Assembly (NCBI GenBank): GCA_034437655.1
Contig: DAOTTU010000001.1
Span: 1,017 to 65,016 of the forward strand
Direction of reading: 5' to 3'
DNA from: Anaerolineae bacterium
GTDB lineage: Bacteria; Chloroflexota; Anaerolineae; Aggregatilineales; J027
DNA length: 64,000 nucleotides
The translations under genes were made by a program, and so were the position numbers. Below, piece by piece: positions 1,408 through 33,003 of the stretch. The notes under the pieces are model-generated. The model ran no database searches. It was not told where the DNA came from and saw nothing but the letters and a program-made list of their open reading frames with translations. The first letter of the stretch is position 1. Each line of letters begins with the position of its first letter.

Positions 1408-2586
1408 TTAGTGGAACGAGGGTGCGTTGACTTGACGCACGTCAATTTGCGAGAAGGTCTGGCCACTGCGGAACAGCGCCGCGAGAAACGCTGATTTTTC
1501 GTGCAGCTCGATTGCCTCACCGATCAAAATCTCGGTGGCGCCTGAGGTTACAGTGATCCCGTCGTCGTCATCGCGGTCTAGCCCGGTGACATGCACACCA
1601 ATCGCCTCCATCATTTCCTGCACTTTGGCCTGTGTCGGGTCAGTGGTTAGCACCTGGCGCACTGGCATCAGCGGAATTTCCTGCATGATGGTTGGCGTAG
1701 ACGGAATGTCTGCAAACAGGTCTGCATCGGACGCTGAATCAGGTACACCGGGCGGTTTCTGCGCATCAAACACGGCCAGGAACTCGTCGTATTCCAGCGG
1801 CGCATAGTCGGTGCAGGGCGGAATTTCGTCCTGAGCAATGCGCCCGGCCAGATCACCAAAAAGCTGGTCAAATTCTGGCACTTCAAATGAGAGCTTGCAC
1901 GCATCGGCTAGCACACGCACACGCTGATTGAGCGGGACGCGCATCAAAATCGGAATGCCAGACGCCGCCGCGTAACGATCCGCAGTGTCGGTGCCATCGT
2001 CGCGATTGACGATCATGCCGAGGATTTGCGTGGTGCCGCCCATCGACTGGAAGTATTTCGCAGCTTTGGCGATGTTATTAGCCGCATAGAGCGATTGGCG
2101 GTCATGCCCGACGACAATGATGATTTGCTCGGCCAGGGAGCGTGCCAGCGGCGTTGCAAAGCCACCACACACCACATCGCCAAGAAAGTCCATCACGATA
2201 AAGTCCAGGTTCCAGCGCGAGAGGCCAAGGCGTTCCAGCACTTTAAAGCCGTGGGAAATTCCCTGCCCGCCGCAACCACGTCCCACATCTGGCCCGCCGA
2301 TTTCACAGCCAAACATCGGAACGCCATCACCAACTTCCGTGCGAAAAATCACGTTACCAACGTTCATGCTGTCTTCAGTGTCAGCGTCTTTGTGCGCTCG
2401 CCAGACATCACCAAGTGTCGGCAATGAGTGCCCACCGAAAATGGTATTGCAAGAGTCGTGCTTGGGGTCGCAGCCAAGCTGTAAGACCCGGAAACCGTCT
2501 AATGCAAGGCGTGCTGTCAGGTTAGAGGTTGTAAAGCTCTTGCCAATGCCGCCTTTGCCGTAAATTGCTAACATACGTGCTGTCAT
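1408..2586 (-). CDS. bchX: Chlorophyllide a reductase iron protein subunit X (NifH/BchL/BchX family) with a long C-terminal extension
   Basis: P-loop YGKGGIGKS, CDPKHDS, GGPDVGRGCGGQGI and LGDVVCGGF cluster-ligand motifs. AAGGAGAG RBS. About 110 extra C-terminal residues lie beyond the conserved core. Confidence 0.85.
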   Translation of the reverse strand: MTARMLAIYGKGGIGKSFTTSNLTARLALDGFRVLQLGCDPKHDSCNTIFGGHSLPTLGDVWRAHKDADTEDSMNVGNVIFRTEVGDGVPMFGCEIGGPDVGRGCGGQGISHGFKVLERLGLSRWNLDFIVMDFLGDVVCGGFATPLARSLAEQIIIVVGHDRQSLYAANNIAKAAKYFQSMGGTTQILGMIVNRDDGTDTADRYAAASGIPILMRVPLNQRVRVLADACKLSFEVPEFDQLFGDLAGRIAQDEIPPCTDYAPLEYDEFLAVFDAQKPPGVPDSASDADLFADIPSTPTIMQEIPLMPVRQVLTTDPTQAKVQEMMEAIGVHVTGLDRDDDDGITVTSGATEILIGEAIELHEKSAFLAALFRSGQTFSQIDVRQVNAPSFH

Positions 2587-2610
2587 TGTGTTCTCTCCTT
2601 GGCTATGCTT

Positions 2611-3582
2611 CTACTGTGTACCTTCAGCGTCCCACTCGAGGACGATCTTCAGGCAGTCGCGGTCGTTCATGGCGATGTCATATGCCTCAGCAACCGCTGT
2701 GATGGGTCTGGTGTGTGTGAGTAGCGGCCCGACTGACAGCGTGCCAGCGGCGATCATATCGCGACAGCGGTCGAGGTCGCCGGGTGCCCATTCTTTGGCC
2801 GTTAATAGCCGTGCTTCTTTGAGAAACAGCGGCATATAGGGCACGGAAAGGATCTGGTAGTAGCCAAGTAGCAGGATGGTTCCGCCCTTGTCGAGCAATG
2901 GCAGCGCCTCCGCAAGCGCCTGCATCGAACCACTGGCTTCTATGATGTATTGAACAGGTTCTTCAAGGGTGTCTTGTAGCGACGTTTCATCAACATTAAT
3001 GATGGCGTCGCCTTCGGAAAAACTGAGGCGAGTCGGGTTTGGGTCACTGACCGCCACCCATGCACCAGCCTCACGGGCAATCCGCGCAGCAAGTTGCCCC
3101 ACAACGCCCTGCCCAATAACCAGCACCCGTTCGCCGGGTTGGAGTTCAAGCAGATCAATACCATGTAGCGACGTTGCAGTCAGTGCCATCATCACGCCAT
3201 GCCGTGGTTCAGTGAAACCATCCAGCGGCACAACACGTGCAGCATCGGTGAACAGCGTTGCTGCCTGCCCACCCCATGCCGCGTTAATGCCGTCGTAGCA
3301 AAATGATCCACCCACATACACCCAGCGCCCCACAAGGTCTTGCGGTGCATCAACGCCAGCTTCGACCACCCGCCCGACTGTTTCATAGCCGGGGATGACC
3401 GGGAGCTGTTGCATGGGGTGTTGCATCTGCCCGGCCAGCAACATGCGCTCGGTACCTGCACTGATTGATGTGAAGGCCGTGCGAATGATGACATCGGCGG
3501 GCCCCGGTTCACGGAGCTTGACTTGTTGTAGGCCCACGTGACCGGGTTTGGAGATCACAACTGCTTGCGTGTTCACGTTCAT
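2611..3582 (-). CDS. bchC: 3-hydroxyethyl bacteriochlorophyllide a dehydrogenase (MDR / zinc-ADH fold)
   Basis: 323 aa with an MDR-type fold (GHVGLQQVKL...ISAGTE; Rossmann VIGQGVVGQL). It sits between bchF and bchX, the typical bchFCX context. Confidence 0.8.
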   Translation of the reverse strand: MNVNTQAVVISKPGHVGLQQVKLREPGPADVIIRTAFTSISAGTERMLLAGQMQHPMQQLPVIPGYETVGRVVEAGVDAPQDLVGRWVYVGGSFCYDGINAAWGGQAATLFTDAARVVPLDGFTEPRHGVMMALTATSLHGIDLLELQPGERVLVIGQGVVGQLAARIAREAGAWVAVSDPNPTRLSFSEGDAIINVDETSLQDTLEEPVQYIIEASGSMQALAEALPLLDKGGTILLLGYYQILSVPYMPLFLKEARLLTAKEWAPGDLDRCRDMIAAGTLSVGPLLTHTRPITAVAEAYDIAMNDRDCLKIVLEWDAEGTQ

Positions 3583-3591
3583 ACTCCGAAC

Positions 3592-4071
3592 TCAGACAGC
3601 CGCTTCTTGTTGGAAAGCAACACGTTCTTTGTGGCCGCGCCAGCCACGATAGGCAAACTGGGCGAAGTTGATAATGTAAGTGACATAAGCCACCAGCATC
3701 AGCGTCATTATTGAGTCATGCGACCAGCCGAGGAACAACGCCACGAAATACAGGTTATGGGTAAACATCGCCACAGCATTAAAAGCGTCTTCCCAGAAAA
3801 ATTCAGGGGCAAGGAACCATTTACCGTACATTTCCTTTTCCCAGAACATGCCCGTCACGGTAATCAGCCACATCAGCAAAATTTTCAGCAGTACGCTAGC
3901 ATTGGCGATGGTGTAACCGTCCCCTGTGGTCAGGTAGTTCACGATCAGGGCGAAGCTGATGAAAAAGGTCAAAAGCTGCAACGGTGCCAGCACCATTTGT
4001 ACTTTCGTCCAGATGCTGTTGTTGCGCTTGTCCATCAATTCACGTGAATAGTGTTTTTTTTGTATGTCCAT
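3592..4071 (-). CDS. bchF: Chlorophyllide a 3(1)-hydratase (2-vinyl bacteriochlorophyllide hydratase)
   Basis: 159-aa polytopic membrane protein. Its N-terminus (RNNSIWTKVQMVLAPLQLLTFFISFAL) resembles BchF. It lies 9 nt upstream of bchC. Confidence 0.8.
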   Translation of the reverse strand: MDIQKKHYSRELMDKRNNSIWTKVQMVLAPLQLLTFFISFALIVNYLTTGDGYTIANASVLLKILLMWLITVTGMFWEKEMYGKWFLAPEFFWEDAFNAVAMFTHNLYFVALFLGWSHDSIMTLMLVAYVTYIINFAQFAYRGWRGHKERVAFQQEAAV

Positions 4072-9344: not shown

Positions 9345-11222
9345 CTACGGTAACGGTGCAACAAAACCAGCGTCGACAGCCCAGGCATACCAGTCATTAA
9401 TGACGGTGCCCGTTAGCAACAGGCCGATGCCACCTGTAATCCCGGTGAGTGCGGCAAACCACCATAACCAGTCATGGATCGTCTTCGAGGTCGCCTGGAA
9501 GCCCATGCACCAGCGCCAGTAGAGTTGAGCGCGGTGGGTACCGGGGCCTTCAGCCATCATCTCATCCATTTCTTTGTGAGAACCCCAGCGCGATGTGGCG
9601 ACGATGGTTGCACCATGCATTGCCAGCAGCAGCGTAGAGCCCAACAAGAAGAAAATCGACAGCATGTGGAATGGGTTGTAATAGAAGTTGCCGTATTGAA
9701 CGCTTACATTATTCGTCCACTCAAGAATAGCCCGGAAGCCATGGCCAGAAGCCTGCGCCCAGTTACCAATGAGGATTGGACGAATCAGATAAATAACTAG
9801 ATACAAGAAGATTGCAGCACCAAAGCCCCACGCCAGTTGTGGGCCCATGCCAGCCGAGTTCGCACGACGATAGACGCGCACCAACCATGCCAGCACAGCA
9901 ACATGCAGGAAGCCAGTTGCAAAGATCCATGCACCACCTTCACGCCACGGGGCCAGCTCCAGCCCATATTCGTACCCGGGTGGGTCGAGGGTCAGGTTCC
10001 AGAACTCACGTGCGAAGAGGATCGGGTTGTAGTCCACCGTCCACAGGTAATGCTCAATAATAATGAATGAGGTCAATGCGCCAGCGGCGACTGAGACGAC
10101 ACCTGCAATACCCAGGTAAACCGGCCCAACCTGACCTTCATCAAACAAACGGCGCATCAGCGGTACTTCAATAGGCTGCTTGATCGCTGTGTTTTCCAGG
10201 CCACGACCACCGTATTCATATTCGTCAGGGTCCACTGGCTTACCAAACGCGCGGCTACGCCAGATTACGACACCGATGAGGAACAGGGATGCGGCTGATG
10301 TTGTCTGCCAGAAGGGGAAGTCGTCCCAGAAGTTCCAGAAGCCAACCCAGTCGTCCACGAGGGTACCGGACAGGAAAATACACAGGTTCGAGAACAGCAC
10401 GGAAAGTACACCAACCCAAAATGCAAGGCGGTGAATGCCGATTTCGCCAATACTGTAGCCCAACAAGTTACGCCAGAAGCCGTCTTCGTTGCCTTCTCTC
10501 ATATACGGGCGGTTACGCACACTCAGGATCACTGAGCCGTGCATTGCCAGAATCAAGGTAGAGGCAAACAGCAGCGTAATGCCAATGGCGTGGAACGGAT
10601 TATAGAAGAAATTGTAATATTGGTAGCCAATGTTGGATACCCAGTCGAGGTGGTGCGTAATGCCGAGCGCAAACCCATTGCCCCATGCCCCCATTGCAAC
10701 TGGGCGCAAGAATTGCAGCGTAATCCATGAGGACAATACTGCACCAAAGGCAATCGGTACTTCATAGCTCATGTCGAGCTTACGAGCAATGTCAACTTGC
10801 CGTATCAGCCAACCGACAAAAGCCAGCGTGGCAAAAAACACCGTGAGTTGCCAGAAAAAACCTGGTTCGTTGGGGCCAACTAGGCTAAGCCCAGCGCTAA
10901 TCGGTGGCGGGTCAAGCCGTGCCTGTAGAATGTTGTACTTTCCTTCAATAATCCATGCCTGATACATGTAAAAGATTACGCCAAAGAAAGTACCTAACAG
11001 AGACAAGACACCGAAGGTTCCCAGATAGAAACGACCAATCCAAAAGTCGAAAGGGTCTGCCCCAAAGAGCGCGTGCATCAGGGTTCCGCCAGGTTTTTTA
11101 TAATACTGCTCCATCTCCAGCATGGAGAGGTTTCTGCCTTCTTTTACTTTCTCAAGGACAAGTCGGTGACGCTTTTCTTCCATCGGCTCGTCAGGAATTG
11201 CCCCTGTTAAAATCTTGGCCAT
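9345..11222 (-). CDS. pufLM: Fused reaction-centre L and M subunits (type II RC)
   Basis: A single 625-aa ORF. The L-like half contains THHLDWVSNIGYQYYNFFYNPFH...AMHGS. The M-like half contains AILEWTNNVSVQYGNFYYNPFH...AMHGATI. A fused pufLM gene is known from Roseiflexus. Confidence 0.9.
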   Translation of the reverse strand: MAKILTGAIPDEPMEEKRHRLVLEKVKEGRNLSMLEMEQYYKKPGGTLMHALFGADPFDFWIGRFYLGTFGVLSLLGTFFGVIFYMYQAWIIEGKYNILQARLDPPPISAGLSLVGPNEPGFFWQLTVFFATLAFVGWLIRQVDIARKLDMSYEVPIAFGAVLSSWITLQFLRPVAMGAWGNGFALGITHHLDWVSNIGYQYYNFFYNPFHAIGITLLFASTLILAMHGSVILSVRNRPYMREGNEDGFWRNLLGYSIGEIGIHRLAFWVGVLSVLFSNLCIFLSGTLVDDWVGFWNFWDDFPFWQTTSAASLFLIGVVIWRSRAFGKPVDPDEYEYGGRGLENTAIKQPIEVPLMRRLFDEGQVGPVYLGIAGVVSVAAGALTSFIIIEHYLWTVDYNPILFAREFWNLTLDPPGYEYGLELAPWREGGAWIFATGFLHVAVLAWLVRVYRRANSAGMGPQLAWGFGAAIFLYLVIYLIRPILIGNWAQASGHGFRAILEWTNNVSVQYGNFYYNPFHMLSIFFLLGSTLLLAMHGATIVATSRWGSHKEMDEMMAEGPGTHRAQLYWRWCMGFQATSKTIHDWLWWFAALTGITGGIGLLLTGTVINDWYAWAVDAGFVAPLP

Positions 11223-22027: not shown

Positions 22028-23182
22028 GTGAAACTTGATATTGCCAGTTTAGAAGCCAATCCCCTCGTAAAATGGAGTATCATTACCCTATCTGTTGCCT
22101 TTGGTGCCGGGCTGTTTGTGTGGTTCTTCACCCAGCTAGACACAGAAGGTAACAACCTCGGCATTGACCTTATCTTCTATGCCTTTCGCGGATGGGATAT
22201 TCATTACCACGTAGTCAATGGGCTACGCAACCCACCCTGGAGTGTGTTGGTACTGATCCCGTTCGGCGCATTACTTCCCGACACCGCATCCTGGGGGTTA
22301 CTGGCATACGCGACCCTCATTGGCTTAATTCTTAGTGTGCCCGGCAATCAACCAAAGTGGAAATTTAACCTCTCCATCATCCTGCTTGTTACTGCGTTTC
22401 CGACACTGCGCGTTATCGCTGACGCGCAACTTGAAATACTGGTGATTGGCGGTATTCTCGCCACTGTCTATGGTCTAGCACACCAGAACCCTTACGCGCT
22501 GGCATTGGGGAGCTTGTTTGCGACTACTAAACCTCAAGCCGTTTTCGTGCTGATGCCGATTGTGGGCATTTACATGTTGCTGAACTGGCCACGCAAGACC
22601 TTTTTCCAAGCGGTTGCGCTGGTCGGTGCTGTGGTCATTCCAACGATGTTGTGGCGCGGCGAAGAGTGGCTTGCAGCAGTAGAAGGCACCTATCAACGTG
22701 GTGGCTTGATTGACATCAGCATGTCGGCGGCGCTCCACAGGATGGAATTCGTTCCGATACCGATCATCTATATCATTTTGGCAACATTCTTTCTTGCGAC
22801 GATGTGGATGGTCTGGATAAGCGACCGTAGCATTAGCCGCGAAAAAGCTGCGTTTCTCAGTGCTGCGTCGATGTTGCTTGCGCCATATACGGCCGGCAAC
22901 AGTGTTTTGATTGTGCTGGCTGTCGGGATTGTTTCTCTCTTACGGCGGCGATTGTTGATTGCTTTGCTCATATTTGCAGTCACCAACTCGTTCTACTACT
23001 TCAATCAGCCAGAGAATGCCACATGGTTTGCCTACTTCTGGACAACATATCTGCTTGCTAATTGGCTCATCCTTGCCTGGGACATTTATCAGGTCGAAGT
23101 GCGCAAAAGTCAGGAAACAGCGGTCGATTCCACTGGCCCAACGCCTGTACCAAACCATCAGCATGTACCACACAGCAGTTAA
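22028..23182 (+). CDS. Polytopic integral membrane protein, function unknown (possibly a GT-C-like glycosyltransferase)
   Basis: 384-aa ORF with a GTG start and at least 9 hydrophobic segments. I recognise no diagnostic motif. Confidence 0.5.
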   Translation: MKLDIASLEANPLVKWSIITLSVAFGAGLFVWFFTQLDTEGNNLGIDLIFYAFRGWDIHYHVVNGLRNPPWSVLVLIPFGALLPDTASWGLLAYATLIGLILSVPGNQPKWKFNLSIILLVTAFPTLRVIADAQLEILVIGGILATVYGLAHQNPYALALGSLFATTKPQAVFVLMPIVGIYMLLNWPRKTFFQAVALVGAVVIPTMLWRGEEWLAAVEGTYQRGGLIDISMSAALHRMEFVPIPIIYIILATFFLATMWMVWISDRSISREKAAFLSAASMLLAPYTAGNSVLIVLAVGIVSLLRRRLLIALLIFAVTNSFYYFNQPENATWFAYFWTTYLLANWLILAWDIYQVEVRKSQETAVDSTGPTPVPNHQHVPHSS

Positions 23183-23229
23183 TGCTCCTCGAGAATTGTA
23201 TTGGTTAACGAAACTTTAGGATCAATTTG

Positions 23230-23258
23230 TTGACGCTTTTCTTAACCCGTGCTATCCT
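23230..23258 (+). promoter_or_regulatory. Sigma-70-type promoter of the aromatic amino-acid operon
   Basis: TTGACG (23230-23235), a 17-nt spacer, then TATCCT (23253-23258). Confidence 0.5.
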
Positions 23259-23279
23259 CACTATCACTTGACCAATTGA

Positions 23280-23435
23280 ATGAGGTTTTTTGTGCGTACT
23301 CTAGCTGCTACCAAAACTGTGAAATTTGATAATTTTACACCTGCGACCACTGTCGACAGCAGCTGGCAGTTTTTTGGTTTCTTTTATTTTTACTACTTTA
23401 GCAGCCCCACCAAGCGGAGACCCCTGCGCACCTAA
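23280..23435 (+). CDS. Aromatic-rich leader peptide (51 aa; not in the supplied ORF track)
   Basis: Hand translation: MRFFVRTLAATKTVKFDNFTPATTVDSSWQFFGFFYFYYFSSPTKRRPLRT, ending at a TAA. Codons 29-40 (23364-23399) are W Q F F G F F Y F Y Y F. No obvious SD precedes the ATG. Confidence 0.7.
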   Translation: MRFFVRTLAATKTVKFDNFTPATTVDSSWQFFGFFYFYYFSSPTKRRPLRT

Positions 23436-23465
23436 ACGGTCAAGTTTAGCAGATAAGACAGCAAC

Positions 23466-23504
23466 AGCACGGCGTCTCCCATCAGGCGCGGTGCTTTTTT
23501 GTTG
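23466..23504 (+). terminator. Attenuator terminator in the aro leader
   Basis: agcac-g-gcgtc (23466-23476) pairs with ggcgc-g-gtgct (23485-23495) around the 8-nt loop tcccatca. One G.G mismatch and one G.U pair are present. TTTTTTGTTG follows. It lies 24 nt upstream of the aroH ATG. Confidence 0.65.
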
Positions 23505-23527
23505 TCTGGAACCAGAAAGAGGGCATT

Positions 23528-23977
23528 ATGGAGAATGTTACACCATCGGAAGAACAGTTGATTTGTCGGGGGATTCGCGGGGCAACCACCTGCGCGGAAA
23601 ATACCCGCGAATCAATCCTTGACGCCACCCGCGAACTGCTGATGGCCATTATTAAACTAAACGGCATCCGGCCAGAGGACGTCGGCAGTGCATTCCTCAC
23701 CACCACCACCGATTTAAATGCCGACTATCCTGCGGTTGGTGCCCGCCAAATTGGTTGGCATGACGTTCCGCTGCTTTGTGCCCACGAAATGAATGTTCCG
23801 CACGGCTTACCACGTTGCATCCGTGTGATGGTGATGTGGAATACTGCCAAACCGCAGGATGAAATTGTACATGTCTATCTGCGTGAAGCAGGTAACCTGC
23901 GCCCCGACCGCTCGCTGGAAATGCCTGAACTCATCGCTGAAATTCAAAAAGAACTACAAACTTTACCTATTGATTAA
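23528..23977 (+). CDS. aroH: Chorismate mutase, AroH class
   Basis: The motifs [22 protein letters not shown] and LRPD are collinear with B. subtilis AroH. Confidence 0.85.
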
Positions 23978-24006
23978 TTAACACCTGTCTTGAGGAGATT
24001 CTAACC

Positions 24007-25044
24007 ATGATCGTCATTATGCATTCAACCGCCAGCGCCCGTCAGATTTCCGAAGTTATCGCCCGTATCCGTGCGATGGGCTACGATGTCCATCTTTCTG
24101 AAGGTGAAGACCGCACCATCATTGGCGTTATTGGTCAGGGACGCGCCCTCGACCGTGAACAGCTCAGCACCATGGCTGGTGTCGAAGATGTCCTGCGCGT
24201 CACCCATCCCTACAAAATCGCCAGCCGCCACTACCACCCCGACAACACCGTTTTCCCGCTGGGCAATACTCAGGTTGGCAGCAACGACTTAACCATCATT
24301 GCGGGGCCGTGTTCAGTTGAAGGGCGCAGCGAATTATTAGAAGTCGCGCACATGGTCAAAGAAGCCGGTGCAACCGCGCTGCGTGGCGGGGCCTTCAAAC
24401 CACGAACCAGCCCATACAGCTTCCAGGGGCTCGGAGAAGAGGGGTTGAAATATCTTGCTGAAGCGCGTGAACAGACCGGCCTGCCCGTGGTTACTGAAGT
24501 CATGGACCCCAGCCTGGTGCCGCTTGTGACTCAATACGCCGACGTGCTGCAAATCGGAGCGCGCAACATGCAGAACTACACGTTGCTGCACGCGGCCGGC
24601 GAAAGTATGCACCCGGTACTGCTCAAACGCGGCATGAGTAGCACGCTGGACGAATTGTTGCAAGCCGCCGAATACATCCTCAGCCACGGCAACATGCGTG
24701 TGATGGTCTGTGAACGTGGCATCCGCACCTTCGGCAAAGAAACCCGCAACACCTTCGACCTCAATGCCATTGTTGCCCTCAAGCAACTCACCCACCTCCC
24801 TGTCATTGCCGACCCCAGCCACGCCACCGGAAAATGGGAATATGTTGAAGGCGTCGCGCTGGGAGCAATTGCCGCAGGTGCCGATGGCGTCATCGTAGAA
24901 GTCCATCAACAACCAGATGTCGCGCTCTCAGACGGTCGCCAATCATTGAAGCCGGCCAAATACACGGCCATGCTCGACAAAATTCGGGGGCTGGCAACGG
25001 TACTCGGGCGCAATGTCCCTGAAGCACAGCCGGTACTGACGTAA
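24007..25044 (+). CDS. 3-deoxy-7-phosphoheptulonate (DAHP) synthase, type I-beta, with an N-terminal ferredoxin/ACT-like regulatory domain
   Basis: IAGPCSVE...[19 protein letters not shown]...KRG...DPSH motifs. An ~80-aa N-terminal extension is present, as in Thermotoga-type DAHPS. Confidence 0.85.
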
Positions 25045-25922
25045 TGAGCGACCACAGCGACGTTGACATCGGTGACTTTCATGTCCACATCATCGGTCTG
25101 GGGTTGATGGGGGCGTCGTTGGCAATGGTATGGCGGGATAAGCTGCGCCGTATCACTGCCGATGACTTATCTCCAGATGTGTTGTCTCATGCGTTGAACA
25201 CTAATTTGATTGACGCAGCGGGCGCAACATGTTTGCCCCGCGCCGATGTTGTGGTGATCGCCGTGCCATCCGACCATATTATAGATGTTCTTGCGGGGCT
25301 CCCACTCCGCGACGGTCAGCTTGTGATCGACATCGGCAGCACAAAGGCCAACATCTGCGCTGCACTGGACACTCTGCCAGCGGGGGTAATGTCTGTGGGG
25401 GGGCACCCGATGTGTGGTCTGGCAGAAAACGGATACTATAATGCCGTTTCCGACCTATACAACGGGGCACGGTTTGTATTGTGCAAAACAAACGGCACCA
25501 CACCTTATGCGCAGGCCGTCGCTGAACAGTTGGCTTGCGCGGCGGGGTCAAATCCGCTGTGGATGGATCGTGAACAGCACGACTACCTGACCGCCCTGAC
25601 CAGTCACCTACCGCATCTGCTCAGTTTTGCGTTGATGCGGTTGGCGGTCGATGTTTCGTCTGAAGATGACGCCCTCTACAAGCTGGCGGCGGGTGGCTTC
25701 GACGGTGCAACACGCCTGGCCCGTACCAACGAAAGCATGATTCGTGGGATGTTGACCACCAATATTGCTAATATTCGCAGCTTAACCGCCCGACTGCGTG
25801 AACACCTCGACCGTCTCGACACCATGCTAGAAGACCCGGCTGCTTTGGTCGAAGAACTGGCGCTTATTGTCGAAGCACGGCGACATTATTCAAGCGATTA
25901 TGGTGAAAGGCCGATTGCATGA
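25044..25922 (+). CDS. tyrA: Prephenate/arogenate dehydrogenase
   Basis: Rossmann fold IIGLGLMGASLA and a conserved GGHPMCG motif. Its start overlaps the DAHPS stop (TAATG). Confidence 0.8.
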   Translation: MSDHSDVDIGDFHVHIIGLGLMGASLAMVWRDKLRRITADDLSPDVLSHALNTNLIDAAGATCLPRADVVVIAVPSDHIIDVLAGLPLRDGQLVIDIGSTKANICAALDTLPAGVMSVGGHPMCGLAENGYYNAVSDLYNGARFVLCKTNGTTPYAQAVAEQLACAAGSNPLWMDREQHDYLTALTSHLPHLLSFALMRLAVDVSSEDDALYKLAAGGFDGATRLARTNESMIRGMLTTNIANIRSLTARLREHLDRLDTMLEDPAALVEELALIVEARRHYSSDYGERPIA

Positions 25923-27244
25923 CCAACTCTGCTACCACAACCAGAACCCGGGTTCGTGTACGGCCGGGACGCGAATTGTCTGGAACGGTGCGTGTCCCGG
26001 GTGACAAGTCTATTTCGCACCGCGCGCTGATTCTGGGAGCGCTGGCAACCGGCGTCACCGAGGTGCGGGGCTGGTTGCCGGCCGGCGATACCCTCGCGAC
26101 ATTGAACTGTATGCGGGCACTCGGCGTCAACATCGAGCAGCACGACGATACAACGCTCACTGTGCATGGCGTGGGGCTGGATGGGCTTGAACAACCAACA
26201 GAGACACTAAATTGTGTCAACGCAGGTACGCTCATGCGCTTGCTGGTAGGTGTGCTGGCGGGTCAACAATTCACCAGTGTGCTAGATGGCAGCGACCAAC
26301 TCCGTAAGCGCCCGATGGGACGTGTCACCAATCCATTACGTTTGATGCACGCCAATATTGAAGAAGACGACGGCCGGGCACCGCTGTATATGAGCCCTTC
26401 CTTTTTGCAGGGCATCACCTACAAAATGCCTGTGGCCAGTGCGCAGGTAAAAAGCTGCCTGTTGCTGGCGGGGCTTTATGCAGCGGGAGATGTCACCGTT
26501 ATAGAACCCGGGCCAGCACGTGACCACACCGAGCGCATGTTGACAGCAATGGGAGCAAACCTGAGCATTAACGGCAATACCATCACCCTGCACGACACCT
26601 CGCAATTGCACCCGCTAAATTTAACCGTCCCCGGTGATATTTCTTCGGCGGCCTTTGTGCTGGTAGCCGGGGCCTTGCTCGGACGGGATACAATACGGAT
26701 TGAAGGCGTCGGCGTGAACCCCACGCGCACCGGGATTCTGGACGTATTGACACAGATGGGGCTTGACGTACAGCAAGACAATCCACGCAATGAAGGTGGT
26801 GAACCCGTAGCCGACCTGGTGCTGAGTGGGCAAGCCTTGCAGGGCACATCTATCGGCGGCGCGGTTGTGGTGCGGATGATTGACGAATTCCCGGCGCTGA
26901 TGGTCGCAGCCACGCAGGCCAGAGGGCGCACTGAGGTCACTGACGCCCGTGAGTTGCGCGTCAAAGAAACAGACCGTATCGCCGTGATGGCGTCCGAACT
27001 ACGCAAGATGGGTGCAACTATTGACGAACGTGAGGACGGCTTTATGCTCAGCGGGCCGCAGATGCTCAAGGGCGCAACAGTCGATGGCCATGACGATCAC
27101 CGCGTGGCGATGAGTTTGGTGCTGGCCGGTTTGCTGGCCAATGGTGAGACGGTTGTTGAAGACGCGAGGTGCATTAATGACTCATTTCCGGGCTTTGTGG
27201 AAGTACTGCAAACGCTCGGTGCAGATGTCGAATGGGCGGAATAG
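25919..27244 (+). CDS. aroA: 3-phosphoshikimate 1-carboxyvinyltransferase (EPSP synthase)
   Basis: PGDKSISHRALILGALA and RVKETDR motifs. ATGA overlap with tyrA. Confidence 0.9.
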   Translation: MTNSATTTRTRVRVRPGRELSGTVRVPGDKSISHRALILGALATGVTEVRGWLPAGDTLATLNCMRALGVNIEQHDDTTLTVHGVGLDGLEQPTETLNCVNAGTLMRLLVGVLAGQQFTSVLDGSDQLRKRPMGRVTNPLRLMHANIEEDDGRAPLYMSPSFLQGITYKMPVASAQVKSCLLLAGLYAAGDVTVIEPGPARDHTERMLTAMGANLSINGNTITLHDTSQLHPLNLTVPGDISSAAFVLVAGALLGRDTIRIEGVGVNPTRTGILDVLTQMGLDVQQDNPRNEGGEPVADLVLSGQALQGTSIGGAVVVRMIDEFPALMVAATQARGRTEVTDARELRVKETDRIAVMASELRKMGATIDEREDGFMLSGPQMLKGATVDGHDDHRVAMSLVLAGLLANGETVVEDARCINDSFPGFVEVLQTLGADVEWAE

Positions 27245-27375
27245 GGCGGGACACCCATTTTAAACACAGCGTAGATAGTTTTAGGTCGCATACCCAACAC
27301 AGGTGAACTGATCTACAATCATCCTTGCAACACGCGATCACTTTTGATCATCAACAGAAAAAGGGATTCATAATC

Positions 27376-28254
27376 ATGCATATCGGACTTCAAGTTTTTC
27401 GCTACAATTGGGATGGTAGCCCGGATAACATTGGCGTCAAGTTTGCAGAAATTGCGCGTCGCGCCGAAAGTAATGGCTTCTATAGCCTGTGGGTAATGGA
27501 CCATTATTTTCAGATGGAATTTCTCGGTAATGCAGATGAACCGATGCTCGAAGCCTACACCACGCTTGGATTCGCAGCGGGGATCACAGAAAAGCTAAAG
27601 CTCGGCGCACTGGTAACAGGCGTTAACTATCGTCATCCCGGTTTTCTGGTGAAAACGGTCACCGCGCTGGATGTCCTGTCAGGTGGACGCGCCTACCTTG
27701 GCATCGGGGCTGGTTGGTACGAACGCGAGGCGCAGGGCCTGGGCTTCCCATTCCCGCCGCTGGCTGAACGCTTCGAGCGCTTAGAGGAAACCCTACAAAT
27801 TGCGCACCAGATGTGGTCCCGGGAACCTGTCACGGCTTATGCAGGGCAACATTATCACCTCGCCGAACCCCTCAATAATCCCCCGGCCCAGACAACACCA
27901 CACCCCCCAATCATGGTTGGCGGTGGTGGCGAGAAAAAGACCTTACGGCTGGTGGCTCAATATGCTGACGCCTGTAACCTGTTCTTGCAGCTTGGCATGG
28001 ATGGCATTCAACACAAACTGAACGTCCTTAAGGATCACTGCGAAACGGTTGGGCGTGACTATGACGAGATCGAGAAGACCACGCTTGGCACTGCCAGCCT
28101 GCAAGCAGATGGCGCAGACGGTATTATCGAGACGTGTCGTCAACTTGCGGCGCTAGGAGTGAGCCACGCCATCTTTAACATGATGGACTATACCGACCTC
28201 CAGCAACTTGATGTGTTCGGGCAGGAAATCATCCCGGCGGTGGCAGAACTTTAA
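27376..28254 (+). CDS. Luciferase-like monooxygenase (LLM) family flavin/F420-dependent oxidoreductase
   Basis: FYSLWVMDH...LGIGAGW...ERFERLEE pattern typical of the LLM family. I prefer the ATG at 27376 after AAGGGA; the track ORF starts at 27325. Confidence 0.7.
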   Translation: MHIGLQVFRYNWDGSPDNIGVKFAEIARRAESNGFYSLWVMDHYFQMEFLGNADEPMLEAYTTLGFAAGITEKLKLGALVTGVNYRHPGFLVKTVTALDVLSGGRAYLGIGAGWYEREAQGLGFPFPPLAERFERLEETLQIAHQMWSREPVTAYAGQHYHLAEPLNNPPAQTTPHPPIMVGGGGEKKTLRLVAQYADACNLFLQLGMDGIQHKLNVLKDHCETVGRDYDEIEKTTLGTASLQADGADGIIETCRQLAALGVSHAIFNMMDYTDLQQLDVFGQEIIPAVAEL

Positions 28255-28287
28255 TATGCTGCAAACGCATAGCTCGCATGTTAACGG

Positions 28288-28317
28288 ATGACACAAATGG
28301 ATTGCACGCGGTATAAT
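28288..28317 (+). promoter_or_regulatory. Internal promoter upstream of the GNAT-aroE-aroC-aroKB-aroQ block
   Basis: ATGACA (28288-28293), an 18-nt spacer, then TATAAT (28312-28317). Confidence 0.5.
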
Positions 28318-28360
28318 TAAACTTATTCTTCAATTTATTAACATAAAAGGCGTGTAATTC

Positions 28361-29374
28361 ATGAGTATTTCAAATTTTACTTCAATTCCTGAAGGCTACC
28401 GACCCGAGACGCTACAACCAGACCATATTCCGCAAATGGTAGAACTTATCAACCATGTCACTGCCGACTATGATCCGGATAGTCAGCGGAGCATGACCGT
28501 TGAGGAGCTTGAACATCAGTTTCAAACGCCGGGGATTGACCTTGAGAGTGGGACGTTCAACGTGTTCTCGGGCCAGCATCTGGTGCTGTCAGCCGTCGCG
28601 TTTTCAATGCCGCCCTATGTTGAGGCGAACTTGCGGTTTTTCGTTCATCCAGCGCATCGCCAGCCAGAACTGACCGAGGCCGTCTACAGCCGTTGTGAAA
28701 AGCACGTTCGATCCTTCGTTGCACTGGCCGATCCTGAGCAGCGTGTTATCTGGAGTACCGGGACGGATGGCAAAGAAACCTGGCTGCGTGAGTTCCTGAA
28801 GTCGCATGGGTTTGGGATTGCGCGTGCCTTCTGGCGGATGCGAATTGATATGGATGAACAGCCCCCGGCTCCGAACTTTGACGGCCTGCAACTACGCCCC
28901 TTCGATCCTGACCAACACATGCGCCCGGTCTATGACGCAATCGGTGATGCGTTTAAGGATCACCATGGGTATCGGGAATCTGAAGACGAAGACGCCGACT
29001 TCGAACGCTGGCGGCATAACATGACCAGTAGTGAACGTTTTGACCCATCACTATGGTTTGTGCTGGTTGATGGCGCGGAAATCGCAGGGGCAGCGTTGGG
29101 CCGCCCCGAAGCAACAAGTCATCCAGAAGCAGGCTATATTGATATACTCGGCGTGCGGCCGCAGTGGCGGCGACGAGGATTGGGTAAGGCACTATTGTTG
29201 CACAGTTTCAACGAATTCTGGAAACGGGGCAAGCGGAGTGTTACTCTAGGTGTTGATGCCGACAGCCTGACCGGAGCCACACGGCTGTATGAAAAGGCCG
29301 GCATGTATCGCGATTCAGAATGGTTCATCTATGAAAAGGAACTGCGCCCCGGCACAGACCCCATTCGCCGCTAG
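28361..29374 (+). CDS. GNAT-family N-acetyltransferase (two tandem GNAT-like halves)
   Basis: The C-terminal acetyl-CoA motif is ILGVRPQWRRRGLGKALL. A second, degenerate GNAT-like half occupies the N-terminus. Confidence 0.7.
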   Translation: MSISNFTSIPEGYRPETLQPDHIPQMVELINHVTADYDPDSQRSMTVEELEHQFQTPGIDLESGTFNVFSGQHLVLSAVAFSMPPYVEANLRFFVHPAHRQPELTEAVYSRCEKHVRSFVALADPEQRVIWSTGTDGKETWLREFLKSHGFGIARAFWRMRIDMDEQPPAPNFDGLQLRPFDPDQHMRPVYDAIGDAFKDHHGYRESEDEDADFERWRHNMTSSERFDPSLWFVLVDGAEIAGAALGRPEATSHPEAGYIDILGVRPQWRRRGLGKALLLHSFNEFWKRGKRSVTLGVDADSLTGATRLYEKAGMYRDSEWFIYEKELRPGTDPIRR

Positions 29375-29409
29375 TTTTGTACCCACACGGAGAGAAGTCA
29401 GCAACACCT

Positions 29410-30261
29410 ATGAATAAAGTTGGATTGATCGGCTACCCGGTTGAACACAGCGTCTCCCCCGCCATGCATAACGCCGCCTTCGCGCATCTCGGCATGGACG
29501 ACTGGCACTATGAATTGCTCCCTACCCCACCAGCGGAATTGCCGCAGCGCATTGCAGCATTGAAAGCCGAGGGCTACGTGGGGGCGAACGTGACCGTGCC
29601 ACACAAGCAAGCGGTTATCCCTCTGCTGGACAGGGTTGGAATGGCGGCGCGGGGCGTCAACGCCGTGAATACCATTCTGCGTAACGAGGCCGGGCAGCTT
29701 GAAGGCCATAATACCGACACCCCCGGCTTTATCCTTGACCTCGAAGCTCATAACGTTGAGGTGGCAGGCAAGCACGCGCTGGTCTTGGGGGCAGGCGGTT
29801 CGGCGCACGCGGTCGTGTTAGGATTAGCCAATCGCGGTGCGACAGTGACAATCATCAACCGCACCGAGCATAACGCCTGGCAATTGCGTGAGGATGTGCG
29901 CAAGGGGGTGTCTCGACAGTTCAGGGTTAACGTGCAGCCGCAAAAGTCACTGCAAACGGTGCTGAATGATGCTGACCTTATTGTAAATTGCACACCGTTG
30001 GGGATGTGGCCAGAGGTGAATGCTTCGCCACTTCCTGATGACGTACAGCTTAAAGCCGATAGTATCATATATGATCTGGTCTATCGTCCGGCTAAAACCC
30101 GTTTACTGGAACAAGCTGAACAAGCCGGCGCACAGGCCATTGGTGGTATTGGAATGTTAATTTATCAGGGTGCGGCCGCGTTTGAACTGTGGACAGGGCA
30201 AACGGCCCCGGTTGAAGTCATGCGCAAAGCGGCCCTGCAAGCACTGGAGCAACACGAATGA
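29410..30261 (+). CDS. aroE: Shikimate 5-dehydrogenase
   Basis: GLIGYPVEHSVSPAMHNAAF, NVTVPHK and NTD motifs. I prefer the ATG at 29410 after GGAGAG; the track ORF starts at 29377. Confidence 0.85.
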   Translation: MNKVGLIGYPVEHSVSPAMHNAAFAHLGMDDWHYELLPTPPAELPQRIAALKAEGYVGANVTVPHKQAVIPLLDRVGMAARGVNAVNTILRNEAGQLEGHNTDTPGFILDLEAHNVEVAGKHALVLGAGGSAHAVVLGLANRGATVTIINRTEHNAWQLREDVRKGVSRQFRVNVQPQKSLQTVLNDADLIVNCTPLGMWPEVNASPLPDDVQLKADSIIYDLVYRPAKTRLLEQAEQAGAQAIGGIGMLIYQGAAAFELWTGQTAPVEVMRKAALQALEQHE

Positions 30262-31448
30262 ACAACACACGCATTCGCTTCTTAACCGCAGGCGAAAGCC
30301 ACGGCCCATTATTGACAACGATTCTTGAAGGTATCCCGGCCGGGCTGGAACTCTTGCCAGACGACATTGCCCTACAACTGGCACGTCGTCAAAAGGGCTA
30401 CGGCAGTGGCGGCCGCATGCACATTGAACGCGACCGCGCCCGCTTAACCGGGGGCTGGATGGCCGGCAAAACCACAGGCGGTCCCATCAGCATGATTGTC
30501 GAAAACCGGGACTGGAAAAACTGGGCCGAGCGCGACATCACCCCGATGACGACGCCGCGCCCCGGCCATGCTGACCTGACAGGCACCATCAAATACGGTT
30601 ACGACGATCTGCGCCTGTCATTGGAACGGGCCAGCGCGCGCGAAACGACGATGCGTGTCGCCGTTGGTGCGGTGTGTCAGCAATTGTTAGCAGAGTTTGG
30701 CATCATTGTCGGCGGTTATGTGACCGAAATCGGGGGGGAATGCGCCCACTTTGATGACGACCCACCCGACTACGAAGCTCGGTTCGCAGCGGCCGAAGAA
30801 TCCGAAGTGCGTTGCCCCGACCCTGACGCCTCTGAACGTATCCGGGCTGCCATTCGCCAGGTAAAAATCGACAAAGACACCCTCGGCGGTGTTATAGAGG
30901 TCGCAGTGTTGAACCTGCCACCGGGCCTGGGTTCACATGTACATTACGACCGTCGCTTAACCGGGCGTCTGGTCGGGGCGGTGTGTAGCATTCAAAGTAT
31001 CAAGGGCGCTGAAGTGGGCACAGCCTTTGACAACACCCGCAAGCGCGGCACACAGGTGCATGACGAAATTGAACAGGACGCCGATGGCAACCTCCACCGC
31101 CGGACGAATCGTGCCGGGGGGCTGGAAGGTGGCATTACAACCGGAGAGCCGCTGGTCGTCCGCGCCGCAATGAAACCCATCAGCACCACCCTTACGCCAC
31201 TCGACTCAGTAGACCTCTTTACAGGCGAAAATGGGCAGACGGTCTATGAACGCAGCGACTTCTGCGCCACCCCTCGTGCTGTACCCGTCATTGAGGCGAT
31301 GGTGTCGATCATATTGGCGGACGCGCTGCTGGAAAAACTCGGCGGCGATTCGATGGACGAAATGCGCCCACGTTTCGAGCAGTTAAAGCGCGGCAATATC
31401 AAAGACTTTCAACTCCACAATAAAGAATGGCGGTTCGGCTATGAATAA
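30258..31448 (+). CDS. aroC: Chorismate synthase
   Basis: FLTAGESHG, RPGHAD and SARETTMRV motifs. ATGA overlap with aroE. Confidence 0.9.
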   Translation: MNNTRIRFLTAGESHGPLLTTILEGIPAGLELLPDDIALQLARRQKGYGSGGRMHIERDRARLTGGWMAGKTTGGPISMIVENRDWKNWAERDITPMTTPRPGHADLTGTIKYGYDDLRLSLERASARETTMRVAVGAVCQQLLAEFGIIVGGYVTEIGGECAHFDDDPPDYEARFAAAEESEVRCPDPDASERIRAAIRQVKIDKDTLGGVIEVAVLNLPPGLGSHVHYDRRLTGRLVGAVCSIQSIKGAEVGTAFDNTRKRGTQVHDEIEQDADGNLHRRTNRAGGLEGGITTGEPLVVRAAMKPISTTLTPLDSVDLFTGENGQTVYERSDFCATPRAVPVIEAMVSIILADALLEKLGGDSMDEMRPRFEQLKRGNIKDFQLHNKEWRFGYE

Positions 31449-33003
31449 ACTCGTGATTACTGGCTTCATGGGCACTGGCAAAAGTACACTCGGGCACAAA
31501 ATCGCTGAAGCAATGGAACTGCCCTTCATTGACACCGACGACCTCATCGCAGAACGGCTGGGCATGAGCGTGCCAGAAATTTTCGCGCAACAGGGCGAGG
31601 CAGCCTTCCGCGCCTGGGAAGCAACCATCGCGGCTGAACTGAGCCAGGACGAGGAAACCGCCATCATCAGCACCGGGGGCGGGATGATGTTACGGCAAGA
31701 CAACCGCCAGACCTTCGCAGCGGATACCGTAATATGTCTCAATGCCTCGCCAGAGGTTATCGTCCAGCGCTTAGAGGGTGACGGCGACGAGCGGCCGTTG
31801 CTGCGCGGGGATGATCCGCTGGCGAAAGTCGAAGAACTGTTGCGCCACCGTCAGCCGCAATATCGCCAATTCCGCTGGCAAATAGACACCTCTGAGCGTA
31901 CCCCGGACGACCTAGCCGAGGAGATTATCGACCTGTGGCGACGTGAACGGGCTGTACGTATTCATGAAATGCGCGTGCGTTCGCCGGAAGGGTTCTACCC
32001 AATTCTAGAAATGCATGGCGCACTCAGACGCCTGCCAGAAATTCTTGACATCTACGGGTTGAACGCCAAACACGTCGTTATTGGTACAGATGATCAGGTG
32101 AATGCGCTGGTTGGTGAATATGTGCTGGACATGTTGCCGCATGCACACATGGTGACAATCCCGGTCGGTGAACGAGCCAAGAATCTGGAAACGGTGCATC
32201 ATATATATAATGAATTCGCCGGGCGTGATGTCAGCCGTAGTTCAGTTGTGATTGCGCTTGGTGGTGGCGTTGTGGGTGACACCTTTGGTTATGCGGCGGC
32301 CACCTATCTGCGTGGTCTGCGTGTTGTGCAAATTCCGACGACGTTGCTGGCCATGGTGGACTCGTCTGTTGGCGGTAAAGTCGGGGTCGATGTACCGATG
32401 GGCAAGAACCTCGTCGGTGCATTTAAGCAACCTGACCTCGTTGTGATTGATCCGGCCGTACTCGAAACGCTCCCCACAGAAGAAATGCGGGCCGGTATGG
32501 CAGAAGTCATTAAACATGGCCTGCTGTCAGATAAGCTCGATACGCTCAGCGACCTGAACACCGTCCACCACCATATTCGCGACGCGGTAAAGGTCAAAAT
32601 TGACGTGGTAGAACGTGACCCGTTTGAGCAGGGAGAACGCGCTTTCCTCAACCTGGGACACACCTTTGCCCATGCCATTGAGCGGGTGAGCATGTATCAG
32701 TGGCGGCACGGCGATGCAGTGGCCGTGGGACTGGTTGCAGCCGGCCGTCTTTCCCATGAACTGGGTCTCATTGACGCGGAAACCAGCCTTCAGGTTGAGG
32801 AAATCGTCGCTGCTGCCGGCCTGCCTATCCGTATCCGTAACATGAACCCCGGCGCTATCTGGGAAGCGATGCACACCGACAAAAAGTGGCGCGATGGGCG
32901 GTCACATTTCATTGTGCTGCGGGGTATCGGACAGCCCGACATTGTGCGCGATGTACCCCGTGAGACAGTGGTGGGCGTTTTGCAAGGTCTTTGCGATGAC
33001 TGA
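31441..33003 (+). CDS. aroK/aroB: Bifunctional shikimate kinase / 3-dehydroquinate synthase (fusion)
   Basis: The N-terminal AroK P-loop is GFMGTGKST...DTD. The C-terminal AroB region has [19 protein letters not shown]...[16 protein letters not shown] and HGDAVAVG. Confidence 0.85.

Follow-up and report, generated by a model that had tools for sequence, protein, structure and literature searches.

The 64-kb stretch of Anaerolineae DNA analysed here (the window) carries, directly upstream of a gene for an AroH-type chorismate mutase (aroH), a promoter, a short open reading frame (ORF) rich in Phe and Tyr codons and a hairpin followed by a run of T. On comparative sequence grounds, we consider it very probable that this element is a ribosome-mediated (leader-peptide) transcription attenuator of the ~9.5-kb shikimate, chorismate mutase and TyrA operon behind it. 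A first-pass annotation, made from the letters of the window alone, had proposed attenuation of the trpL/pheL type at this site, and the conserved frame, the terminator and a pairing between the leader and the terminator arm all support that logic. The elements, their order, their spacing, their conservation over ~40 relatives and a pairing potential above chance are observed in the sequences. The coordinates of the features are collected in Table 1; entries numbered L and P denote aroH loci and AroH proteins of relatives, respectively.

A conserved aromatic leader frame upstream of aroH

Across the six frames of the window, eight or more aromatic codons within 12 stop-free codons occur once, in the codon run of the leader, WQFFGFFYFYYF. 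The first-pass annotation had described it as codons 29-40 of a 51-codon ORF at 23280-23435, and the translation of that ORF, MRFFVRTLAATKTVKFDNFTPATTVDSSWQFFGFFYFYYFSSPTKRRPLRT*, its 14 aromatic codons in 51 and the ten aromatic codons among the 12 of the run all stand. Its start does not: the closest relatives have AAG or CGC in place of ATG 23280, and the invariant start is the GTG at 23292 that follows GAGG. Since GAGG-N6-GTG is invariant and ATG 23280 is replaced, the translated leader is most likely 47 codons long in an unchanged frame, with GTG 23292 as its most likely start codon. The same arrangement, AAGAGG followed by 6 nucleotides (nt) and GTG, is present in L002 and L003.

The small ORF and its codon run are conserved in relatives. 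The aroH loci were collected blind to the leader, from species-representative genomes (40) and metagenomes (80), and those with at least 250 nt upstream, 81 in all, formed the test set; a leader was counted where at least six of nine codons encoded Phe, Trp or Tyr in an open frame at most 500 nt upstream of aroH. Such a run occurs on the sense strand of 32 of the 81 loci, as against one of 81 on the antisense strand and 0/72 and 3/72 in downstream controls. In a second set of ten closer relatives (AroH 70-88% identical), fetched later via a protein database, nine have the run and the tenth has a degenerate FPHCYLYYY. A metagenome-assembled genome (MAG) of Roseiflexus sp., from the class Chloroflexia, shows the leader MQLRSAYFFWFWYFASSLRAWLLRVG*, then a terminator and then aroH. 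Relatives of very different nucleotide sequence thus share one layout: promoter, Shine-Dalgarno sequence and start, Phe/Tyr-rich frame, stop, a spacer of ~30 nt, terminator and aroH. No leader was found in other Chloroflexota (Thermomicrobiales, Dehalococcoidia and several Chloroflexia MAGs), where aroH lies directly behind a long ORF that, judged by its motifs, looks like trpA.

The promoter TTGACG-17-TATCCT was found where it had been placed, with a TG ahead of the -10 box besides. The same -35 hexamer occurs with TATCCT or TATGCT as the -10 box in L002, L003, L122, L123 and L124. Across the family, 20 of 29 leaders have TTGACN-17-TANNNT ahead of the run, a number that rises to 25 when the pattern is relaxed; each of two control regions gives 0/27. 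At L007:3844, L047:1152, L050:1005, L079:1353, L090:335 and L094:1213 the leader begins with an ATG ~7-15 nt past the -10 box and has no Shine-Dalgarno sequence; the mRNAs that encode these six peptides may be leaderless or nearly so.

Downstream of the leader, the hairpin at 23466-23495 that had been proposed as the terminator is confirmed, and its T run is displaced by one position, at 23495-23500 rather than 23496-23501, with G at 23501. The stem can be extended to 23457-23503 through pairing of an A-tract with the U-tract. A GC hairpin with a T-tail separates the leader stop from aroH at all 32 leader-bearing loci of the first set and in ten leaders obtained later (nine closer relatives and Roseiflexus); in 32/32 leaders its 5' arm starts 19-42 nt past the leader stop, mostly 26-37 nt. 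When the window was scanned for strong hairpins with a T-tail at most 200 nt upstream of a long ORF, the leader site was the sole match, and the scan returned no second attenuator-like terminator.

A frame that looks translated and is conserved, and that gene callers annotate as a hypothetical protein in two relatives (81 amino acids in L127 and 42 in L130), might simply encode a functional aromatic-rich micro-protein, such as a membrane peptide; the hairpin would then be a plain terminator or insulator before aroH, and no amino acid would be sensed. We regard this as extremely unlikely. The leader peptides, of 22 to ~90 residues, are unrelated outside the run and the last ~12 codons, and, apart from the run, conservation is confined to a stretch that coincides with the RNA partner of the terminator arm. 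Phe and Tyr interchange freely, even among close relatives (for example, FFAY in L006 and FYAY in L051). The element always immediately precedes aroH, although the genes on its far side differ (trpEG in relatives, an unrelated gene in the window). Finally, a plain terminator would silence the operon, and no second promoter was seen in the 27 nt that separate the terminator from aroH.

A further candidate is an attenuator in which RNA alone or a bound protein does the sensing (a riboswitch, a T-box-like or a TRAP-like device), with the U-rich tract as an RNA motif and the open frame as an incidental feature. The leader fold does beat its shuffles (23260-23510 folds at -78.3 kcal/mol, z = -3.68 versus dinucleotide shuffles), and close relatives use T-boxes for the neighbouring trpEG. 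Nevertheless, a search of 22800-24000 against Rfam (release 15) at E <= 10 returned no family, save a chance snoRNA match of 11 bits, and a gathering-level search of the window and 40 relatives returned no known family at the leader. The T-box family RF00230 has no match in the window, whereas the same search detects T-boxes upstream of trpE in L002, L003 and L004 at 111-117 bits. Moreover, the frame is open from the conserved Shine-Dalgarno sequence and start through the run to the stop; the distance from the stop to the terminator is fixed in all loci; the nucleotides of the run vary while their aromatic coding is kept; and insertions or deletions in the run comprise whole codons, such as the 6-nt insertion TTCTAT (Phe-Tyr) in L124 and the extra Phe codon of L003 relative to L002. 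On this evidence, sensing by RNA or protein in place of a translating ribosome has a very small probability in our estimate.

Gene callers mishandle these loci in several ways. The ORF in another frame that had been listed at 23326-23622 of the window is present, and it is spurious, spanning both the terminator and the aroH start. The two leader frames annotated as hypothetical proteins lie at L127:901-1146 and L130:979-1107. In P0007 and P0011 (250 and 252 amino acids) AroH has been extended N-terminally by ~100 residues.

Segment pairing and the proposed mechanism

The attenuator is proposed to work through mutually exclusive pairings of four RNA segments, 1:2, 2:3 and 3:4, the last being the terminator (Table 1). 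Transcription would start a few nucleotides past the -10 box, and a ribosome would load at GAGG-N6-GTG and translate the 47-codon leader. If charged Phe-tRNA or Tyr-tRNA (perhaps also Trp-tRNA) were scarce, the ribosome would stall in the codon run, hiding segment 1 and leaving segment 2 free to capture the nascent 5' arm of the terminator (23467-23479) ahead of synthesis of the 3' arm, so that the polymerase would read into aroH. With charged tRNAs plentiful, the ribosome would reach the TAA and hide segment 2, and the terminator hairpin and its U-tract would stop transcription ~27 nt before aroH. Without translation, segment 1 would hold segment 2, and the region of the start codon and the 5' untranslated region (UTR) would pair with 23426-23445, again leading to termination. 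Ribosome stalling, competition between the pairings on a kinetic basis, the true 3' ends and an amino-acid response are the parts of this scheme that we infer from the sequences.

For each leader, the antiterminator pairing (2:3) was sought as the best duplex between the region from the end of the run to the start of the terminator and the terminator 5' arm with its loop. In the window, the best duplex joins CGGAGACCCCUGCG (23415-23428) to 23466-23480 by 11 bp (-17.9 kcal/mol, p = 0.022 versus shuffles). The 2:3 pairing drawn by hand in the first-pass annotation, ggagacccc (23416-23424) with ggcgtctcc (23471-23479), has its letters as placed and is the core of this duplex, which extends it to 11 bp. 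In 15 of 30 unique leaders the 2:3 duplex surpasses dinucleotide shuffles at p < 0.05, with a mean z of -2.1 and a combined Fisher p-value of 4e-17, which, like the other combined values given here, overstates independence because the leaders are related. Cognate pairs of leader segment and terminator arm average -18.9 kcal/mol and non-cognate pairs -14.7, and 0/20,000 permutations reach the observed mean. In a fresh set fetched later, 10/11 loci give p <= 0.05 for this pairing.

The position of segment 2 is kept as well: it never lies outside the final ~35 nt of the leader ORF. Counted from the stop codon, it spans -21 to -1 in the sub-family of the window (L002-L004, L122-L132) and -33 to -17 in a second sub-family, where it would sit at the trailing edge of a terminating ribosome. 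It had been argued that a ribosome at the stop would cover segment 2; in the window the segment is indeed within reach of a terminating ribosome, which could thus occlude it. The paired strands differ in sequence among relatives at corresponding positions of the structural register: GGAGAC:GUCUCC in the window, GGGAAC:GUUCCC in L002 and GGGGACA:UGUCCCC in L004. In a covariance-model alignment of 12 sequences in the antiterminator conformation, 84.5% of the cells are paired, as against 32-64% with slid partners, and 0/500 shuffles reach 84.5%, although the alignment is fitted to the structure and so leans in its favour. Five pairs in this alignment have substitutions in both partners, and 1/500 shuffles attains its covariation score. 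The covariance model of the antiterminator recovered only the sub-family of the window, and the window and L122-L124 appear offset by one base in its alignment, so that some of their cells are scored as unpaired.

In addition to the relatedness of the leaders, several observations weigh against the attenuator reading. The 2:3 helix is 90.9% paired and invariant in the window's own clade, which makes that clade uninformative on covariation, and strict covariation is thin. Pair counts on cross-clade sequence alignments are confounded, because close pairs are invariant and distant pairs are shifted in register, giving falsely 'broken' pairs. No significant 2:3 duplex was found in L005, L050, L007, L060 or L094. 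The 1:2 duplex of the window (-12.0 kcal/mol, p = 0.12) is not significant on its own. At equilibrium, the free transcript folds at -67.6 kcal/mol, compared with -56.1 kcal/mol when the antiterminator is forced, and with a ribosome masked on the run the values are -62.4 and -53.7 kcal/mol; in whole-leader equilibrium folds, masks included, the terminator state lies 9-14 kcal/mol below the forced antiterminator. When the 5' part of the transcript is left free, the minimum free energy (MFE) structure of the nascent RNA keeps segment 2 sequestered. A simulation of pairing probabilities over truncated transcripts with free, stalled and at-stop masks separated the states poorly; it is uninformative because the GC-rich terminator 5' arm finds some partner under each mask.

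The one transcript whose MFE structure (-19.6 kcal/mol) is the antiterminator is the nascent RNA beyond a stalled ribosome (23409-23483). As the terminator is favoured at equilibrium, the antiterminator can win only kinetically. The question raised at the outset, whether 2:3 competes with 3:4, therefore has a divided answer: it does so locally and co-transcriptionally, before segment 4 is made, but not at equilibrium, with or without a masked ribosome. The E. coli trp antiterminator is likewise thermodynamically weaker than its terminator and wins kinetically.

For the 1:2 pairing, the letters ggtttc (23376-23381) named earlier are right, and the helix, in which segment 1 pairs with 23416-23422, belongs to the unconstrained MFE structure, while the window duplex taken alone is not significant, as given above. 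The helix is 87.5% paired and mostly invariant in the four closest sequences, and across the family the pairing exceeds shuffles (p < 0.05) in 10/27 leaders (Fisher 3.6e-6).

The ribosome-free fold contains two further helices that tie the start of the transcript to the leader stop. The first pairs the 5' UTR with the stretch just past the stop (23266-23273:23438-23445); its cells are 93.8% paired in the four closest sequences, among which two compensatory double changes (UA>CG and GC>AU) are seen. In the second, GUGCGU at the start codon (23292-23297) pairs with 23426-23431, and 91.7% of its cells are paired in the same four sequences. The 5'-UTR helix would cross the antiterminator pairs and so should exclude them as nested structures; it could also block re-initiation. 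We considered this helix as a family-wide feature and rejected it as marginal, with 8/32 leaders significant (Fisher p = 0.04).

Amino acids probably sensed and relation to known systems

Summed over the runs of the 30 unique leaders, Phe accounts for 108 codons, Tyr for 105 and Trp for 14. No Chloroflexota leader lacks either Phe (2-8 codons) or Tyr (2-6 codons), and a Trp codon occurs in 12/28 distinct runs. The Trp codon is kept in the window, L122 and L123 (SSWQFF) and is lost from L124 outward; the Roseiflexus run contains two. The earlier idea that one leader senses all three aromatic amino acids is thus backed only in part: Phe and Tyr codons are universal, whereas Trp is minor, inconsistent and absent in many relatives. 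We conclude from the codon content that the element is probably a joint Phe and Tyr sensor, with a possible contribution from Trp. Joint sensing of Phe and Tyr fits the operon (chorismate mutase, TyrA and the common pathway) and the presence of a T-box on the neighbouring trpE-trpG in close relatives.

In one sub-family, designated 'WRGF', UGG-CGC-GGG forms the 3' arm of a strong hairpin, and conservation of the Trp codon there may be structural. These hairpins (L006:3792-3819, L051:24-51, L071:1021-1048, L091:1189-1214 and L005:3825-3852) fold at -17 to -21 kcal/mol with U-rich Phe/Tyr codons directly after them, which looks like a pause or terminator-like hairpin within the leader ORF. As a general feature, a pre-run pause or first-terminator hairpin was rejected: it is strong only in 'WRGF', and that of the window (23343-23370, -7.4 kcal/mol) is no better than controls.

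Such hairpins bear on another explanation, in which the attenuator is coupled to translation and reports general translation capacity or initiation instead of the supply of Phe and Tyr, the U-rich codons serving as a pause or a terminator-like tract. It can draw on the compensatory changes in the long-range helix that links the leader stop and its surroundings to the 5' UTR and start codon, on the hairpin followed immediately by U-rich codons in 'WRGF', and on equilibrium folding, which favours termination in every state. It is nevertheless very unlikely. The enriched codons exactly match the end products of the gated pathway, with Phe and Tyr in every Chloroflexota leader and a Tyr-only version in other MAGs, and neither the pre-run hairpin nor the long-range helix is general. 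Moreover, U-richness alone does not account for the run, given that the leaders use Tyr codons (UAU/UAC) as often as Phe codons. The Tyr-only leader, VKSLKIRYSYYYDSYYYKRMGL, stands before aroH together with a terminator and an antiterminator pairing at L036:3823-3891 and L039:3838-3906. One of these loci is labelled Aminicenantaceae and the other Eubacteriales, and the peptide is identical in both; this reflects either a wider spread of aromatic leader peptides or mis-binning.

The attenuator of aromatic genes proposed here has described counterparts. The closest, compared by functional description only, is the aroR leader (Phe-Tyr-Phe) that precedes the aroF DAHP-synthase operon of Corynebacterium glutamicum and that is reported to respond to Phe and not to Tyr (Neshat et al. 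2014, as cited in PMC11802643). As far as this cited description goes, both would be ribosome-mediated attenuators before an operon containing DAHP synthase, with mixed Phe and Tyr codons, and read-through at aroR increases on stalling. By the same description, aroR has three regulatory codons, in contrast to the ten aromatic codons in 12 of the window and the 6-13 per leader of its family, and the operon of the window, unlike that of aroR, opens with chorismate mutase and includes tyrA and almost all of the shikimate pathway. The aroR leader belongs to Actinomycetota and the element of the window to Chloroflexota.

The E. coli leaders pheL-pheA (PMC3082878) and trpL-trpEDCBA have the same layout of promoter, short ORF with a run of end-product codons and intrinsic terminator, as well as the mutually exclusive 1:2, 2:3 and 3:4 pairings that we propose for the window. 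The window leader, at 47 codons, is longer than theirs, and its predicted specificity is mixed (Phe and Tyr, with or without Trp) rather than for a single amino acid. The clade of the window has the extra helix from the 5' UTR to the post-stop region, and its leader matches no Rfam family in sequence or structure. The amino-acid leader families of Rfam include Phe, Trp, His, Leu and Thr leaders. Segment 2 of the window lies upstream of the stop codon and adjoins it, whereas that of trpL lies downstream of the leader stop codon.

T-boxes (RF00230) and the element of the window would both be transcription attenuators that read the status of aminoacyl-tRNA through a competing terminator and antiterminator, and in relatives they share a gene neighbourhood. 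Translation plays no part in a T-box, which binds uncharged tRNA itself; the element of the window lacks a T-box signature and has a translated-looking frame. In close relatives, T-boxes precede trpE at L003:1255-1517, L002:566-826 and L004:1314-1578. In L003, trpE (1548-3041) and trpG (3057-3623) lie directly upstream of the Phe/Tyr leader, and by our reading of the alignment the specifier of the T-box is probably UGG (Trp). The window has neither the T-box nor trpEG at the leader position, so that synteny is broken there.

The textbook mechanism and a mixed Phe/Tyr leader, that of C. glutamicum aroR, are already known. According to a survey of 2010, Proteobacteria and Actinobacteria were the only groups with demonstrated leader peptides, and the survey itself added Firmicutes (PMC2965389). 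The first-pass annotation was aware of no described leader-peptide attenuation in this lineage, and our literature search, in which subscription-only papers were outside the scope, likewise found no description of it in Chloroflexota. We therefore class as apparently new the phylum, the Rfam-unmatched leader family, the unusually long mixed Phe/Tyr run and the very large predicted regulon.

Locus, host and meaning for Chloroflexota

The host had been called a Chloroflexota phototroph. The window indeed encodes a 625-residue protein with two Photo_RC (PF00124) domains (9345-11222, minus strand), a fused PufL-PufM type-II reaction-centre gene, and on this basis the host is a phototrophic member of the Chloroflexota. 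The AroH proteins closest to that of the window come from Anaerolineae MAGs, including P0010 (80% identity), which is labelled Phototrophicales. A gathering-level Rfam search of the whole window returned no match, not even a tRNA.

The leader is followed by nine genes on the plus strand with gaps of at most 107 nt (window ORFs, assigned by Pfam). Chorismate mutase, DAHP synthase, tyrA and aroA, which had been named as the gated common-pathway genes, are confirmed by Pfam, and aroE, aroC and an aroK-aroB fusion follow as well. Behind the leader thus stand TyrA, the Phe/Tyr branch point and almost all of the common pathway, presumably on one transcript. A luciferase-like monooxygenase and a GNAT acetyltransferase lie between aroA and aroE (27325-29374), and the N-terminal ~200 residues of the GNAT protein have no domain assignment. 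Upstream of the leader, the window has an unrelated 384-residue ORF where most relatives have trpEG. In the Roseiflexus MAG, the gene directly upstream of the aromatic leader and aroH (L132:684-1274) encodes a response regulator whose ANTAR domain is of the RNA-binding antitermination type.

Table 1. Features of the aromatic leader and of the genes behind it (window coordinates)
Feature	Position	Strand	Remarks
Promoter, sigma-70 type, TTGACG-17-TATCCT	23230-23258	+	TG precedes -10 box; -10 box at 23253-23258
Long-range helix, 5' arm ACUUGACC	23266-23273	+	5' UTR; in MFE structure
Shine-Dalgarno sequence GAGG	23282-23285	+	6-nt spacer to GTG; no variation among window and L122-L124
Leader ORF, GTG to TAA (most likely start)	23292-23435	+	47 codons; conserved GTG at 23292-23294
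Regulatory codon run	23364-23399	+	6 Phe, 3 Tyr, 1 Trp; proposed ribosome stall site
Segment 1, GGUUUCU	23376-23382	+	Within run; in MFE structure; partner is segment 2 (23416-23422)
Segment 2, GGAGACCCCUGC	23416-23427	+	Antiterminator 5' strand; 17 to 6 nt before stop; starts 17 nt past last aromatic codon
Leader stop codon TAA	23433-23435	+	
Long-range helix, 3' arm GGUCAAGU	23438-23445	+	Just past leader stop; in MFE structure
Terminator hairpin	23466-23495	+	-17.3 kcal/mol; 97% paired in close relatives
Segment 3 (terminator 5' arm)	23466-23477	+	Plus loop bases to 23480
Segment 4 (terminator 3' arm)	23484-23495	+	
T (U) tract	23495-23500	+	Six T, then GTTGT
Gated operon	23528-33003	+	Pfam domains; ~9.5 kb; probably a single transcription unit
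Gene 1, AroH-type chorismate mutase	23528-23977	+	Pfam
Gene 2, DAHP synthase with ferredoxin-like regulatory domain		+	Pfam
Gene 3, prephenate dehydrogenase (tyrA)		+	Pfam
Gene 4, EPSP synthase (aroA)		+	Pfam
Gene 5, luciferase-like monooxygenase		+	Pfam
Gene 6, GNAT protein		+	Pfam
Gene 7, shikimate dehydrogenase (aroE)		+	Pfam
Gene 8, chorismate synthase (aroC)		+	Pfam
Gene 9, shikimate kinase-DHQ synthase fusion (aroK-aroB)	ends 33003	+	Pfam

A broader reading that joins these observations is offered only tentatively, and we hold it to be rather less probable than its negation. The leaders of Anaerolineae-type phototrophs and Roseiflexus might belong to an ancient, phylum-wide attenuator family of the Chloroflexota, in which a single leader would combine the signals of two aminoacyl-tRNA pools, Phe and Tyr, or of three where a lineage adds Trp, and gate essentially the entire shikimate pathway, working beside a Trp-specific T-box on trpEG. 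In the clade of the window, the covarying helix from the 5' UTR and start codon to the post-stop region might then act as an added check, so that only co-transcriptionally loaded ribosomes would relieve termination.

The finding matters at several levels. For annotation, such a leader is missed or called a hypothetical protein by gene callers, and overlapping spurious ORFs arise. Cultured Roseiflexus strains exist, and the Roseiflexus copy of the leader may open a route to experiments. In close relatives, control of one pathway would be divided between two tRNA-sensing devices: trpEG under a T-box for tRNA-Trp, and the common-pathway operon next to it under a Phe/Tyr leader peptide. As a well-conserved family in the Chloroflexota, these leaders would widen the phylogenetic reach of leader-peptide attenuation beyond Proteobacteria, Actinobacteria and some Firmicutes.

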